DNA of 64,000 bases from contig JAMCWG010000005.1 of the NCBI GenBank assembly GCA_023475235.1, positions 7,046 to 71,045 on the forward strand, read 5' to 3'. The notes below the pieces were generated by a model that was given only the letters and a program-made list of their open reading frames with translations, had not been told where the DNA came from and did not search any database. The DNA is from Chloroflexota bacterium. GTDB taxonomy: Bacteria; Chloroflexota; UBA6077; FW602-bin22; JAMCWG01. Position numbers and translations under genes: made by a program. The first letter of the stretch is position 1. Each line of letters begins with the position of its first letter. Below are positions 31,360 through 50,955 of this stretch, piece after piece.

Positions 31360-31603
31360 GGCTCTCCCCACATTCTCTTGCCACCTTATCGCACCACTAT
31401 GCCGGTACGTAAAACCAGTACCTGCGGTGCAACCAACCATCGAAGCGCAAGGCCCTTACACTAGCGGTAGCTTACCGCAACAGAGTGAATGTGTCCATAT
31501 CCCGGCGGGAGAAAGCTCCACCAAACACCCGATGCCGGTGCCTTCGGGCGTCTAGCAGCCCTCCAGAAGAGGCCTGCCCAAGGAGAGGCCGGGCTTCTCC
31601 GGT

Positions 31604-31999
31604 TTATGCTCTCTCCAGCATCGCCTTCATCGGCTGCCAGTAGTAGTCGTTCCAGGCCCGCAGGACGCTGTCGTAGCAGTTATGCGGCACGCCCGACTGG
31701 GTGAAGGTGAGGCGGGTGCCGCCCGGCACAACCTCCAGCAGGAAAGTGGCCCTGGAGTAGTGGCCCGCGGGCCAATCTGCGGAGCGCCAGGACTGGACGA
31801 TCTGCTTGTCCGGCGTCAGCTCGCGGTTGGTGCCGGTGATATCGCCGTCATAGACGGTGAAGTCGCCGCCCACCTCGCGGCTGATCACGGCCACGCTGCA
31901 AGTGAAGGCGGAATGCTTCTCGGAATCCATCAGGGCCTCGTAGACCTCATGCGGCCTCGCCCGAAAGGTTATTGATTGGCGAATGGTCCTGGTCCTCAT
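31604..31999 (-). CDS. SRPBCC / Aha1-domain (activator of Hsp90 ATPase homolog 1-like) protein
   Basis: 131 aa. The pattern ITFRARPHEVYEALMDSEKHSAFT ... LTFTQSGVP ... WNDYYWQPMKAML is typical of the AHSA1/SRPBCC family. Confidence 0.75.
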   Translation of the reverse strand: MRTRTIRQSITFRARPHEVYEALMDSEKHSAFTCSVAVISREVGGDFTVYDGDITGTNRELTPDKQIVQSWRSADWPAGHYSRATFLLEVVPGGTRLTFTQSGVPHNCYDSVLRAWNDYYWQPMKAMLERA

Positions 32000-32214
32000 C
32001 TTTCCTCGCTATTCCTTGCCTGTCTTACTTACCCAAGCAAGTATGTTGATCACACTTACCTGATTATGTTTGGTACAAGGCAGGCGGCCAATGGTGCCGC
32101 CCGGAATGTCACTCGCCTAGGCACCATCGTCGTTTCGCGGCCGCGTCCCGTCGGGCCGTGGTCGATGGCGATCATAGTATCATCCACTGCCTAGGCAGGG
32201 TGCAAGCCCGGCCC

Positions 32215-32388
32215 CAGGGCCTTTTCAAAGTCCGTTGATCCTGCTGCCCGTGGGGCTTACCTCACCCCCCGGCCCCCTCTCCGCGCGCGGAGAGGGGGTG
32301 GCCGAAGGCCAGAGGTGAGGTAAACTACCGCTGGCAAGGCAACCGAAGCGCTGTGTGATTCCTGGCTGGCAACTTTGAAAAGGCCCAA
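32215..32388 (+). mobile_element. MITE-like hairpin element, copy A
   Basis: CAGGGCCTTTTCAAAGTC ... AACTTTGAAAAGGCCCAA terminal inverted repeats. Inner inverted repeat GCTTACCTCACC / GGTGAGGTAAAC. Apical perfect palindrome CCCCCTCTCCGCGCGCGGAGAGGGGG. Collinear with copies at 46208 and 50663. Confidence 0.6.
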
Positions 32389-32520
32389 CCGTCCCCACAC
32401 CCCGCTTGTAGGCCGGACCTTGCCGCCGGAGTTGACAGGACAGCGGCAAAAGGGAAGGTACATCCCTCGGCACGAAGAGCAGCACCGGTCGAGCCTTACC
32501 CTACGGCCTCTCCTGTTAGG

Positions 32521-32531
32521 GCAAGTCAAAC
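32521..32531. repeat. Left copy of 11-bp direct repeat GCAAGTCAAAC bracketing the two-gene cassette
   Basis: Identical 11-mer at 34198-34208. The left copy lies 16 nt beyond the stop of the 32547..33416 gene. Confidence 0.6.
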
Positions 32532-32546
32532 GCCAGTCAAGACCGG

Positions 32547-33416
32547 CTATAGCTCATATATGACAACGAAGTTGGCCCCGTCGCTTCCCGACTGCTGTCG
32601 AATTCTAACACCACACAACGCCTCGATTATCCAGCTTCTCATTACGGAGCAGATGTTAGGATACCGATTGCGCAAGCCCATCAATTTCGCGACGTCGCCC
32701 GAGCGCACCTGCAGGGTCTTCCTCCCTGCCTTCCTGGCTTCGGCCACTAGTTCGTCCCGGATGAACTTCCTAATTGCGTCTGCTTGACCACCAGTCTGAG
32801 ACGGGAGCTGCCTATCAGGCGGCTGGCCCTTCGAAACCGTGGTGCGATGGTTTTCGAGGAGACTCGTGTCGCCAAGCTGTAATTTCTCCTGCGGTTCTTC
32901 TGGTAACAGCACAACAGCCACTCCCTCAAGTTTATCTGCATAACGATTCTTCAGGATTGCAAAAGTATTTCTGTCTGTAACGAAGAAGTACCTGAAACTT
33001 GCTTTGCACGCAGCCAGTTTTTCCAAATCCCGAGTTACTGATGCTCTCTGGTTGGCCCCAAAATCCGTTACACCATATGGTACAGTCGTTTTCACCTCTG
33101 CTATCACTCGTTCTCCGTTGGAGGCCAGTTCGTCTATATCTAAGCCTGGAGCACCCTGGAGTTTGGCATCGATATCGAACGCGGGCAAGTCGTGGCGTGA
33201 CATCAAGAACTGCTTCGCCATTAGGCACGCGGCGAAGCTAACGTCATTGTCGAAGTTCCCCAAGAGCCGCTTAATGGCCGCCAAGTAGTGGAACCAGTAG
33301 TCACAATCGGCCTGCTGTTCATCCAGATGATTCGCCATAAGAAACTCCGAAAGCTGCCGCAGCTTGCCGGATATTGTTGTCAAGCGATTGCTTTCGCCAG
33401 GTGTTCGACTTATCAT
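32547..33416 (-). CDS. Hypothetical protein with PD-(D/E)xK-like (restriction-endonuclease-fold) motif and a small basic C-terminal domain
   Basis: 289 aa. ATG preceded by GGAGGA with a 5-nt spacer. Candidate catalytic pattern GLDIDELASNGERVIAEVKT (D ... E-x-K) followed by the hydrophobic strand YFFVTD. Low-GC codon usage. Confidence 0.6.
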   Translation of the reverse strand: MISRTPGESNRLTTISGKLRQLSEFLMANHLDEQQADCDYWFHYLAAIKRLLGNFDNDVSFAACLMAKQFLMSRHDLPAFDIDAKLQGAPGLDIDELASNGERVIAEVKTTVPYGVTDFGANQRASVTRDLEKLAACKASFRYFFVTDRNTFAILKNRYADKLEGVAVVLLPEEPQEKLQLGDTSLLENHRTTVSKGQPPDRQLPSQTGGQADAIRKFIRDELVAEARKAGRKTLQVRSGDVAKLMGLRNRYPNICSVMRSWIIEALCGVRIRQQSGSDGANFVVIYEL

Positions 33417-33452
33417 AGCTCTCCTCCTTTCGATCGATATGCCTATCGCGCG

Positions 33453-34157
33453 TTAGCTCCCAAACGTGGGCTTCGCCCTCTTTAGAAAAGCTTTCTCAGC
33501 GTTTCTTGTCAACCTAGCCATGACGAGTGCGTCCAGCCTTGACGAGAGTCGGTTCCACAACTTGAAGCAATGCACGTTGCCTGCCGGGTCTTCGGCATGT
33601 CGAACACGGACAACGAGCACATAGTCATCCAACAACAAATTCGTGCTCCCGTCGCCGACAATCTCACTTAGCCCGCTTCGGTAGAAATCTGGCCGTATAA
33701 CGAATGCTCTCGGCGTTTGTACCGTTTCGTCTTTTCTCTTGGCGATGATCGCTATGTTCTGCGGTCGCAATCTGGTAACAATAATGCTTCTGGCTGCTGC
33801 TTTGTGCTCCGGTGTCATCACGCTTCGGATATGTTCATTCCATATGAACTCAAACGGTCTCCCGTCGAAACTGTTTTCCCAGTCGGTGCCAATCTGATTA
33901 TAAAAAAGGGCATCAACCATGCATTGCTCGACGATTCCCCTTACGTGAGCATCTACTACAGGTCCCCACCAAGGAGTGTCGCCAAGCGAAACGATTATGT
34001 CCCACCGCCTCTGGCCGTCCTCATCCCCAGTGCTCTTGCAGTTCAGGATAATGGGAGGAAATCTCATACGACTCGCCACCAGTCTTCTGGGTATTTCCCA
34101 TCCGACAACGCCAGCGAAGAACACGACCACTGAAGGCAACCAATTTGCCCAATCCAC
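33453..34157 (-). CDS. Hypothetical protein with N-terminal transmembrane/signal-anchor helix
   Basis: The GTG at 34157 is preceded by GGAGGTG with a 4-6 nt spacer. N-terminus (M)DWANWLPSVVVFFAGVVGWEIPRR. I recognise no domain. The ORF as tracked begins at TTG 34184, which overlaps the putative -10 box. Confidence 0.55.
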   Translation of the reverse strand: MDWANWLPSVVVFFAGVVGWEIPRRLVASRMRFPPIILNCKSTGDEDGQRRWDIIVSLGDTPWWGPVVDAHVRGIVEQCMVDALFYNQIGTDWENSFDGRPFEFIWNEHIRSVMTPEHKAAARSIIVTRLRPQNIAIIAKRKDETVQTPRAFVIRPDFYRSGLSEIVGDGSTNLLLDDYVLVVRVRHAEDPAGNVHCFKLWNRLSSRLDALVMARLTRNAEKAFLKRAKPTFGS

Positions 34158-34183
34158 GGGGCACCTCCGCTCGAAGTGCCCCA

Positions 34184-34192
34184 ACTATACCA
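34184..34192 (-). promoter_or_regulatory. Extended -10 promoter element (TGgTATAGT) for the cassette
   Basis: The minus strand reads TGGTATAGT about 27 nt upstream of GTG 34157, just inside the right direct repeat. Confidence 0.35.
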
Positions 34193-34197
34193 TCATT

Positions 34198-34208
34198 GCA
34201 AGTCAAAC
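34198..34208. repeat. Right copy of 11-bp direct repeat GCAAGTCAAAC
   Basis: Identical to 32521-32531. Lies between the cassette promoter and the stop of the FGGY kinase gene (34239). Confidence 0.6.
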
Positions 34209-34238
34209 CGATAGGCATATTGATCGATTATGCTGCGA

Positions 34239-35822
34239 CTAGAGAACTCTTCCCGCATTTGACCGCACCTCCGCCAGGGCGCGGAACTGGTCCTGCAGCG
34301 CCCAGTAGGCATCTATGTCAATCTTGTAGAGTCTGTCGTAGAGAGCGTGCTCCGCCTCGCGCGGCGCGTACCCCTCGGCCGGCTCCACCTTCGAGCGGAT
34401 GGCCGCCAGGTCGGGCTGCATCCCCTGGGAGACCATCGCCAGGAAGGCGGCGCCGAAGGCCGAGGCTTGCTCCGTCCTGATCGTTTGCAGTTCCATGCCG
34501 AGCACATCGGCCAGCATCTGCACCCACAGCTTCGAGTGGGTGAACCCGCCTGTCGCCCGCACCTCCACCGGCGCGCCGGTAACGTCGATGAGCGCGTCGA
34601 CGATGCTCCGCATCCGGTAGCACACCCCCTCCAGCGTTGCCCGCAGGATGTGCTTGCGCCCGTGGGCCATCGTCAGGCCCAGCAGGACGCCGCGGGCGTC
34701 GGCGTTCCAGTAGGGGGCGCGCTCGCCGGTGAGCAGCGGCAGGAAGATAAGCCCTTCGCTGCCCGGGGGCACCTCCGCCGCCCATGCCTCCATCATCTCC
34801 CGCGGCCGTGGGGGCTCGCCGCCCGTAGCCTTCCGCAGATCGGCCAGCCAGCCCCAGTCCCAGAAGTTGTCCTGGATCCACTGGTGGATGAGCCCGCCGT
34901 TGTTGATGGCCGCCCCGATCACCCAGCGGCCGTCGGCCAGGTAGTAGCACCAGGTACGGCCCTGCGCGTCGGTGCGCGGCTCCCTCGCCATCACCCGGGC
35001 GGCGCCGCTGGTGCCGATCATCACCGTCATCTGCCCGGCGTCCACCGTGCCCGTGCCCAGGGACGAGAGGACGCCGTCGCCCGCGCCGAGGACCACGGCG
35101 GTATCCGGCAACAGGCCCATCGCATCGACGTATTCCTGCTTCATTCCTCGCAGTGCAGTCCGCCCCTCGACGGGCTCGCTCAGCCTCTCGGGGCCGATGC
35201 CGGCCAGGGACAGCATCTCGTCGTCCCAACACAGCTTGTGGGTGTCCAGCAGGCCAGTCGCCGAGGCCACCGACAGGTCGACCACGAAGCGGCCGAAGAG
35301 GCGATGGATGATGTACTCCTTGACCGAGATGAACCTGGCAGCCTTCTTGAAGACTTCCGGCTCCGTCTCGCGCAGCCAGGCGATCTTCCACGGCAGGTAC
35401 ATCGGGTGGATGGGGCAGCCCGTGCGAGCATAGACGGCCTGTGCGTCGACCACCTTCCTGGCCTCCTCCGCCTGCCTGCCGGCGCGCGTGTCGGCCCAGG
35501 TGTTGGCCCTCGTCAGCGGGTTGCCGGCCGCGTCGACGGCAAGCATCCCGTGGAAGATCGCGCTGATGCCGAGGGCGCGCACCTGCCCCGGCCGCGCCTG
35601 CGCCGCGTCTACCGCCTGGCGCACGGCCTTCAGGACAGCCGCGAAGATGGCGTCGGGATCCTGCTCCGCCCAACCGGGGCGGGGGAAGAGATGCGGGTAC
35701 TCGCCGGCAGCCTCGGCTAGCTGGCGGCACTCGCCGTCGAAGACCACGGCCCGGCAGCCGGACGTGCCGATGTCCAGGCCGATGACGTAGCCGGTGCGAT
35801 CAGGGCTGGGAAATGTAGTCAA
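34239..35822 (-). CDS. FGGY-family carbohydrate kinase (gluconokinase/xylulokinase-like)
   Basis: YVIGLDIGTSGCRAVVFD (phosphate-1), LGAGDGVLSSLGTG, ATGGFTHSKLWVQMLADVLG. TTG start preceded by GGGGGAAGGA. Confidence 0.9.
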   Translation of the reverse strand: MTTFPSPDRTGYVIGLDIGTSGCRAVVFDGECRQLAEAAGEYPHLFPRPGWAEQDPDAIFAAVLKAVRQAVDAAQARPGQVRALGISAIFHGMLAVDAAGNPLTRANTWADTRAGRQAEEARKVVDAQAVYARTGCPIHPMYLPWKIAWLRETEPEVFKKAARFISVKEYIIHRLFGRFVVDLSVASATGLLDTHKLCWDDEMLSLAGIGPERLSEPVEGRTALRGMKQEYVDAMGLLPDTAVVLGAGDGVLSSLGTGTVDAGQMTVMIGTSGAARVMAREPRTDAQGRTWCYYLADGRWVIGAAINNGGLIHQWIQDNFWDWGWLADLRKATGGEPPRPREMMEAWAAEVPPGSEGLIFLPLLTGERAPYWNADARGVLLGLTMAHGRKHILRATLEGVCYRMRSIVDALIDVTGAPVEVRATGGFTHSKLWVQMLADVLGMELQTIRTEQASAFGAAFLAMVSQGMQPDLAAIRSKVEPAEGYAPREAEHALYDRLYKIDIDAYWALQDQFRALAEVRSNAGRVL

Positions 35823-46207: not shown

Positions 46208-46380
46208 TAGGGCCTTTTCAAAGTCCGCTGATCCGGCTGCTCGTGGGGTTTACCTCACCTCCGGCCTTCGGCCACCCCCTCTCCGCGCGCGGAGAGGGGG
46301 CCAGGGGGTGAGGTAAACTGCCGTTGGCAAGGCAACCCAAGCGCTGTCTGATTCCCGGCTGGCGACTTTGAAAGGCCCTG
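46208..46380 (+). mobile_element. MITE-like hairpin element, copy B, with 9-bp target-site duplication
   Basis: TAGGGCCTTTTCAAAGTC ... GACTTTGAAAGGCCCTG termini. Flanked by TTCTCAAAC at 46199-46207 and 46381-46389. Confidence 0.7.
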
Positions 46381-50662: not shown

Positions 50663-50955
50663 CAGGGCCTTTTCAAAGTCCGCTGACCCGGCTGCTCGTG
50701 GGGTTTACCTCACCCCCGGCCTTCGGCTTTGCCCCTCGCCAGTCGCCAGACCCGCCATCCTCACCAGCAGTCAAAGAAGGCGACCCCTCGCCACGGCGAG
50801 AGTGCCGCAGGCATCTTGGCGGGAGGCGAGTCGCCTTCGGAGACCTCTCCGAGCGCGGAGATGGGGCGGCCGAAGGCCGAGGGTGAGGTAAACTGCCGTT
50901 GACAAGGCAACCCAAGCACCGTCTTGTTCCTGGCTGGCGACTTTGAAAGGCCCTA
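50663..50955 (+). mobile_element. MITE-like hairpin element, copy C, with 10-11 bp target-site duplication and about 120-nt apical insertion
   Basis: Same termini as copies A and B. Flanked by (A)CGGCCCGGCA at 50652-50662 and 50955-50965. There is extra sequence between the GGCCTTCGGC and GCCGAAGGCC arms. Confidence 0.7.

Follow-up and report, generated by a model that had tools for sequence, protein, structure and literature searches.

A foreign mini-island in a Chloroflexota contig carries a candidate single-gene defence nuclease of an unnamed PD-(D/E)xK family

Some type IV (modification-dependent) restriction enzymes combine a reader domain with a PD-(D/E)xK nuclease, as in Mrr, which consists of a winged-helix Mrr_N and a Mrr_cat domain, and in MspJI. 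Where McrBC systems have been characterised, the DNA target is read by the N-terminal part of McrB. Here we describe a segment of a contig from a Chloroflexota bacterium (JAMCWG010000005.1), of which a stretch of 64,000 nucleotides, in the following called the window, was analysed. The segment is delimited by two copies of an 11-bp direct repeat (32521-34208) and contains two open reading frames, ORF-A and ORF-B. An original prediction, made from the letters alone, had taken both genes together for a membrane-protein-plus-nuclease module with the profile of a small defence system. According to our analysis the segment is a real foreign mini-island with a candidate single-gene defence nuclease, ORF-B, and not a new two-gene system. 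The coordinates of all features are compiled in Table 1.

Like Mrr and MspJI, ORF-B is a single polypeptide with no cognate methyltransferase nearby, its PD-(D/E)xK domain is fused to a small domain of DNA-binding type, and its family occurs in defence islands beside GmrSD, McrBC-like, BREX and restriction-modification genes. It differs from both enzymes in that the nuclease comes first and the accessory domain last, and in that the accessory domain represents a different, unnamed fold family. Unlike Mrr, it matches neither Mrr_cat nor Mrr_N nor any other model of Pfam, PADLOC or NCBIfam. With McrBC it shares a C-terminal domain homologous to residues ~105-185 of McrB-like proteins, but it lacks the AAA+ motor and McrC (no AAA_5 or PF10117 match), and its own fused nuclease would cleave. 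Of the solved structures, Foldseek ranks the type II enzyme EcoO109I (PDB 1wtd) closest to ORF-B, with a seemingly common PD-(D/E)xK core topology, but the match is weak (E = 0.02, template modelling (TM) score ~0.3, 14% identity); unlike EcoO109I, ORF-B has no partner methyltransferase beside it, either in the window or in the single-gene cassettes described below. Integron cassettes were shown experimentally to carry small phage-defence genes, the bacteriophage-resistance integron cassettes (BRiCs; bioRxiv 10.1101/2024.07.02.601719). Short-form relatives of ORF-B resemble them as attC-flanked single-gene cassettes at 8 metagenome loci, whereas the window copy has neither attC nor integron. 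No described BRiC belonging to the ORF-B family was found, and the word 'nuclease' is absent from the text of bioRxiv 10.1101/2024.07.02.601719.

By its sequence ORF-B is a predicted PD-(D/E)xK nuclease of an unnamed family, and its activity would be expected to depend on metal. The D...ExK pattern noticed in the original prediction is real and invariant across 14 family members, and no Pfam, PADLOC, NCBIfam or PHROGs model matches the protein. The family alignment also contains a conserved GNxDND...LMAK helix. Relatives are rare: just 14 were found among 5.8 billion proteins, a profile search gave 49 clusters, and a metagenome scan added 77 loci. A confident AlphaFold (AF2) model from the family alignment (predicted local distance difference test (pLDDT) 83.6) has an alpha-beta-beta-alpha-beta-alpha-beta core and is composed of a helical N-terminal region, the alpha/beta nuclease core, a disordered linker (176-208) and an alpha/beta C-terminal domain (211-289). 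D93/D95 (GLDID) and E107-x-K109 (AEVK) map to the model strands E94-97 and E103-109. The top matches of a Foldseek search against the PDB are nearly all PD-(D/E)xK enzymes (EcoO109I, Card1, SfsA, NucS, ACE1, Cdn1, AF1548), at weak scores of E = 0.02 and TM ~0.3 at best. Sequence profile searches of the PDB yielded nothing meaningful for ORF-B and only spurious matches overall (azurin, designed repeat proteins).

The C-terminal domain aligns over 74 residues at 35% identity (pairwise BLASTP E = 3e-10) with part of an AAA_5 ATPase of 933 aa (residues 105-178) from a Sphingobium plasmid; an McrC (PF10117) gene lies downstream of the ATPase gene. When the domain was compared with the N-terminal region of McrB-like proteins, hhalign gave a probability of 98.3% with a query profile that contains the Sphingobium fragment. 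The matching stretch of residues ~105-185 lies in the N-terminal, non-ATPase part of the McrB-like proteins, and no Pfam model matches this McrB-like domain. With the Sphingobium fragment as query, the domain was found in 'AAA family ATPase' genes of 90 plasmids, 61 of them from Klebsiella. In a Klebsiella plasmid AAA_5 is again followed by McrC, and the McrC pairing was seen in both examples checked. The homology of the C-terminal domain to the McrB-like N-region suggests that ORF-B may be a stand-alone, type IV-like restriction nuclease. A homology of the same domain to DUF7662 was rejected (hhalign probability 0.1). The McrBC-like class found on the 90 plasmids, mostly of Klebsiella, is represented by L169 5689-9800 and L173 4677-8137 (plasmids NZ_CP102668 and NZ_CP023417), and in one of these records the McrC gene is mis-annotated as 'IQ calmodulin-binding-domain protein'.

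Three architectures occur in the ORF-B family: the nuclease with the C-terminal domain, as in the window (~290 aa), the nuclease alone (~175 aa), which is the commonest form in metagenomes, and an N-terminal DUF7662 followed by the nuclease (~288 aa) in Bacillaceae. No neighbour family is conserved across 67 loci, and an all-against-all BLAST of 237 neighbouring ORFs revealed nothing recurrent except for near-identical contigs. Perfect direct repeats of at least 11 nt bracket the family gene in 4 of 51 non-redundant loci (0.33 expected), and there the downstream copy is located 0-17 nt from the stop codon. Three of these four repeat pairs (L106, L140, L154), together with shorter ones (L108, L113), are integron attC sites, which extend from R'' GCCTAAC or GTCTAAC to R' GTTAGGC or GTTAGAC and have paired L''/L' boxes. 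Two attC covariance models (R1 and R2) were built here from the family sites and recover 22-28 attC sites in the homologous loci. According to these models attC arrays flank the nuclease gene in 8 metagenome loci (L106, L107, L108, L113, L132, L140, L141, L154), and in each of the 8 contigs the short-form PD-(D/E)xK nuclease is one cassette of the array. Thus the short form recurs as an integron cassette of a single gene. The fourth of the four repeat pairs, in the AT-rich contig L103 (1612-1623 and 2307-2318), is of another kind: the nuclease gene is surrounded by two AT-rich hairpins that are not attC-like, both contain the near-palindromic 12-mer TACGAAATTCGT, and their outer stems differ.

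Judged by inspection of its loci, the ORF-B family has a strong tie to defence islands and integron cassettes, and its neighbours are often defence genes. A Moorella locus (L001) contains GmrSD/HEC-05 as well as a type III methyltransferase and restriction subunit, L004 four tyrosine recombinases, a GmrSD-like gene and a Mokosh-like helicase-PLD, and L005 a prokaryotic Argonaute (pAgo) and a gene of the metallo-beta-lactamase (MBL) fold. AbiEii is present in L170 (Rhizobium plasmid), and NERD, SLFN, a SWI2/SNF2 helicase and BrxA/BrxB are present in L175 (Lysinibacillus). Various other loci include Mrr_cat with UvrD, BrxL, AbiEi, TIR and a second GmrSD. On two unrelated contigs (L005 600-5278, L007 442-1812) long-form homologs of ORF-B follow an MBL-fold (Lactamase_B_2/RMMBL) protein of 457-541 aa; this protein has no PADLOC match, and on one of the contigs pAgo is also found nearby. 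In both Moorella/Neomoorella genomes the ORF-B homolog is preceded upstream by a small DUF1659 gene (L001 5537-5758, L174 5894-6037), probably as lineage synteny and not as a functional link.

We lean towards the reading that the segment is a horizontally acquired mosaic insertion of two unrelated genes, with ORF-B, a stand-alone type IV-like nuclease, as its core and ORF-A as a non-partner. A compact insertion would have entered between the 3' end of the FGGY kinase gene and the upstream region of the SRPBCC gene, and the 11-bp repeat would probably correspond to the insertion junctions, either as duplicated target or as microhomology used in integration. ORF-B would be the functional core, a solitary nuclease from a family that moves as single genes. 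Foreign DNA would be recognised by its C-terminal domain through some feature, in all likelihood a modified base, and cut by the nuclease domain, with no need for a cognate methyltransferase. ORF-A would be a passenger or locally recruited gene and not a conserved partner, with a leader hairpin that would occlude its Shine-Dalgarno (SD) sequence. The extended -10 element that precedes ORF-A would probably serve as promoter for both genes. The stand-alone type IV-like reading fits because no methyltransferase is present, because the family occurs in single-gene cassettes and because of the company of defence genes. The neighbours of the island in the window are the kinase, the SRPBCC protein and a histidine kinase, with no methyltransferase next to it, and the integron cassettes hold the nuclease ORF alone. 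By analogy, ORF-B would depend on DNA modification and play a role in defence, for which it is a plausible single-gene candidate.

Several points weigh against this reading. Since the Foldseek scores are weak, the fold assignment of ORF-B rests mainly on the invariant motif, and the activity of either family is predicted from sequence. That the McrB-like N-domain would read modified DNA is an analogy, the domain itself being uncharacterised and without a Pfam model. Some neighbours of the family are plain housekeeping genes (carboxyl transferase, IMPDH, ABC permease, aminotransferase, CorA). The foreign nuclease with a defence profile that the original prediction had proposed stands as far as defence genes beside the family and integron cassettes elsewhere are concerned, but the island in the window is located outside any defence island and has no attC site. 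Furthermore, ORF-A and ORF-B have the same GC content and seem to depend on one promoter, as two genes with a joint function here might, and the 11-mer could be coincidental at roughly the 1% level, given the freedom in flank choice.

A wider version of the nuclease reading is tentative and in our view somewhat doubtful. The ORF-B family would then consist of unrecognised single-gene, methyltransferase-independent restriction nucleases in which one PD-(D/E)xK core is joined to exchangeable small accessory domains (a C-terminal McrB-type domain, an N-terminal DUF7662, or neither), and it would spread via integron cassettes as well as in defence islands. Arrival of the window copy in a housekeeping intergenic region would be due to a recombinase-independent event that duplicated 11 bp, and ORF-A would perhaps be a membrane-tethered modulator of this lineage only.

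Regarding the mosaic insertion itself, the segment 32521-34208 is foreign DNA as judged by the GC content at third codon positions (GC3), which amounts to 0.586 for ORF-B and 0.574 for ORF-A versus 0.82-0.90 for the flanking genes. Overall GC is 0.52 between the repeats and 0.63-0.69 in the neighbouring genes, so the lower GC reported in the original prediction is real. The island lies between the FGGY sugar kinase 3' end on one side and the SRPBCC upstream region on the other, with the histidine kinase gene also nearby. The repeat GCAAGTCAAAC has just the two predicted sites in the 64-kb window, also when one mismatch is permitted. Its identity stops at 11 nt on both sides, and an alignment of the flanks at both island ends revealed no longer degenerate repeat beyond the 11-mer. 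The chance of an 11-mer shared by these two flanks was re-computed as 0.0023 by shuffling, 0.004 analytically and 10/1243 with the same geometry slid along the real window; the original prediction had estimated ~0.002. As the window contains 331 direct 11-mer pairs 0.5-5 kb apart, the 11-mer is notable only because it coincides with a composition boundary.

The 331 pairs would suit a coincidental repeat and an arrival by homologous replacement of a variable intergenic region, or by two insertions in succession, the later one bringing in ORF-A between its inverted repeats. The right 11-mer lies just inside the inverted-repeat segment of ORF-A, a position that sits uneasily with a target duplication in one event, the low-GC tract passes the right 11-mer and continues to the kinase stop codon (GC 0.43, 34209-34238), and the island ends have no recombinase, attC or terminal inverted repeat. 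Nevertheless, both copies are located only ~15-40 nt from the outermost coding ends of the foreign segment, and with a probability of 0.002-0.008 for these two short flanks we regard coincidence as unlikely.

Features of known mobile elements were searched for in the window. It contains no tRNA or tmRNA gene, the Rfam scan was empty, and no recombinase or transposase-like ORF is present between the repeats. One island end is not linked to the other by any inverted repeat; the sole significant one (19 nt) encloses ORF-A but not ORF-B. The attC models R1/R2 detected no attC site in the window, even when filters were off over 31500-34700, the best hit (E = 0.16) falling on the hairpin of a repeat resembling a miniature inverted-repeat transposable element (MITE). 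A weak R''/R'-like pair inside ORF-B (32603-32661) was rejected as attC candidate, as it is not significant (E ~0.4-0.8). Tested for an integron attC, for terminal inverted repeats inside a target-site duplication or a transposase, and for a tyrosine/serine recombinase or tRNA att site, the island has none of them. The 11-bp repeat, which probably marks the insertion junctions, could result from target duplication, from a single crossover at microhomology or from chance.

Across 185,579 species genomes the FGGY kinase has no relative closer than 48% identity. Sampling of the host lineage is thus very sparse, and all comparative tests are limited by this. The SRPBCC protein gave no match in an exact look-up, and no empty site was found; the other contigs with ORF-A (L171, L172) represent the same locus (99.8-100% identity). 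Neither the 11-mer nor the 19-mer is present in any other fetched locus. One of the two contigs begins within the right repeat; it is short, probably a low-coverage fragment, and was not read as a strain breakpoint. The MITE that had been described as lying immediately beyond the left repeat is a real three-copy repeat of the window (further copies at 46209-46378 and 50664-50953), but it is not immediately adjacent, as it ends ~135 nt from the left 11-mer copy. The MITE-like repeat is ~170 nt long and has GTTTACCTCACC...GGTGAGGTAAAC termini and an internal palindrome; the third copy contains additional internal sequence.

An island without a recombinase and with a direct repeat at its flanks would also be expected if ORF-B were a selfish nuclease of the homing-endonuclease or solitary-restriction type, or a toxin, and if the 11-bp duplication came from repair of its own staggered cut. 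The GC of the family gene is below that of its flanks in 15 of 16 loci, and at several loci it sits between housekeeping genes. However, the clearest mobile cases are flanked by attC and were thus moved by the integron integrase and not by the nuclease, island ends and repeat sequences vary between loci, and phage and viral collections, in which homing endonucleases are plentiful, contain no member of the family. These observations render a selfish nuclease improbable.

ORF-A is predicted by its structural model to be an orphan membrane-anchored beta-sandwich protein. A word-indexed search returned only ORF-A itself, while HMMER, run exhaustively over 1.84 billion representative proteins, gave five real relatives with 29-40% identity. 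All full-length relatives have an N-terminal hydrophobic helix followed by RR and a beta-rich domain. The transmembrane helix and the absence of a recognised domain in the original prediction agree with this conserved putative anchor and with searches of Pfam, PADLOC, NCBIfam and PHROGs, none of which matched. The model is of moderate quality (pLDDT 70) and has the look of a beta-sandwich, and its Foldseek matches are generic beta-sandwich or C2-like folds with E values of at least 0.02. No ORF-A was found in phage and plasmid collections; the alignment was too divergent for a scan of viral contigs.

Both genes are encoded on the minus strand in the same direction with a gap of 36 nt, as predicted, and their starts correspond to the NCBI gene calls, ORF-A starting with GTG and not with ATG. 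The SD sites of both genes are present (GGAGGTG for ORF-A, GGAGGAG for ORF-B). The proposed extended -10 promoter TGGTATAGT exists at its predicted position, but a -35 hexamer at proper spacing is missing and the element does not appear in the list of a consensus scan. ORF-A and ORF-B would probably be co-transcribed from it. The leader hairpin may act as a translational brake on ORF-A by burying the SD sequence.

The 19-nt inverted repeat encloses ORF-A, its promoter and the right 11-mer copy. Two copies of the 19-nt motif are present in the window versus 0.02 expected, and with shuffled flanks an inverted repeat of at least 14 nt arose in 0.015% of trials. Relatives of ORF-A elsewhere have no such inverted repeat. 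Its arms could be the termini of an element nested in the island, a pair of operators or a site of inversion, and the repeat fits a mosaic origin of the island.

No relative of ORF-A was detected in any of the 85 ORF-B-family loci (tblastn with 6 ORF-A-family proteins), and none of the 3 ORF-A-family loci (L009-L011) contains a relative of ORF-B. The two-gene module fails because the ORF-A and ORF-B families do not co-occur elsewhere, an outcome that the original prediction had itself named as telling against the pair. The PADLOC check suggested there was also run and gave no match for either protein (PADLOC-DB v2, no family at E <= 1). The pairing of ORF-A and ORF-B is probably incidental. 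Thus a two-component defence or abortive-infection system, with ORF-A as membrane-anchored sensor or effector and ORF-B as nuclease, is very improbable: two co-directional genes 36 nt apart behind one promoter-like element, their nearly equal GC and GC3, one direct repeat around both and a leader hairpin hinting at tight control of a possibly toxic product speak for it, but zero co-occurrence, a nuclease family that works as single-gene integron cassette, a separate inverted repeat around ORF-A and the lack of PADLOC matches stand against it.

Table 1 Features of the island and its surroundings (window coordinates)
Feature	Position	Strand	Remarks
MITE-like repeat	32216-32385	.	One of 3 copies in the window; neighbour, outside the island
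11-bp direct repeat GCAAGTCAAAC, left copy	32521..32531	.	Perfect repeat; 16 nt 3' of ORF-B stop
Hairpin GCCGGTCTTGACTGGC	32532..32547	-	Directly after ORF-B stop; left repeat copy forms a T-rich tail, terminator-like; fold z-score -1.4, weak
ORF-B (NCBI M1531_00320), 289 aa	32547..33416	-	Unnamed PD-(D/E)xK family; nuclease domain, disordered linker, small C-terminal domain
ORF-B residues 211-289	32550..32786	-	Alpha/beta winged-helix-like C-terminal domain; homologous to McrB-like AAA_5 ATPases
ORF-B residues 1-172	32901..33416	-	Three-helix N-terminal region and PD-(D/E)xK core; common to all three family architectures
Catalytic motif GLD(93)ID ... VIAE(107)VK(109)TT	33090..33140	-	D93, D95, E107 and K109 invariant in 14 family members
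ORF-B Shine-Dalgarno GGAGGAG	33421..33427	-	
19-nt inverted repeat, arm 1 TCGATCGATATGCCTATCG	33430..33448	.	In the 36-nt gap between ORF-A and ORF-B
ORF-A (NCBI M1531_00325), 234 aa	33453..34157	-	GTG start; orphan family; N-terminal hydrophobic helix, then beta-sandwich-like domain
ORF-A residues 4-28, WLPSVVVFFAGVVGW then RR	34074..34148	-	Predicted membrane-anchor helix, kept in homologs; model helix 7-30; topology inferred
ORF-A leader hairpin, 10 bp	34158..34182	-	3' arm contains SD GGAGGUG directly before GUG start; -20.9 kcal/mol, z -2.9
Extended -10-like element TGGTATAGT	34184..34192	-	Upstream of ORF-A; candidate promoter for both genes
11-bp direct repeat GCAAGTCAAAC, right copy	34198..34208	.	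41 nt 5' of ORF-A GTG start, 31 nt 3' of FGGY kinase stop
19-nt inverted repeat, arm 2 CGATAGGCATATTGATCGA	34209..34227	.	18/19 complementary to arm 1; abuts right 11-mer copy
FGGY kinase	34239-35822		Neighbour of the island
Expected single-copy empty-site allele CCTGTTAGG-GCAAGTCAAAC-CGATAGGCATATT			Predicted; junction CCTGTTAGGGCAAGTCAAACCGATAGGCATATTGATCGA

The importance of the locus is moderate because the claim of a new two-gene system does not hold. Its points of interest are the modular build of the ORF-B family, its presence in integron cassettes and the link to an uncharacterised McrB N-domain. If ORF-B acts as proposed, it would stand for an unannotated family of compact stand-alone restriction-type nucleases of 175-300 aa, with ~50 protein clusters and 77 metagenome loci, for which Pfam, PADLOC and NCBIfam have no model. 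A family of this small size could be tested directly in heterologous hosts. Its C-terminal domain would give access to the uncharacterised N-terminal domain of McrB-like proteins, which plasmids of Klebsiella and E. coli commonly encode, and the family as a whole would tie the integron cassettes of environmental bacteria to defence islands in Firmicutes and Chloroflexota.

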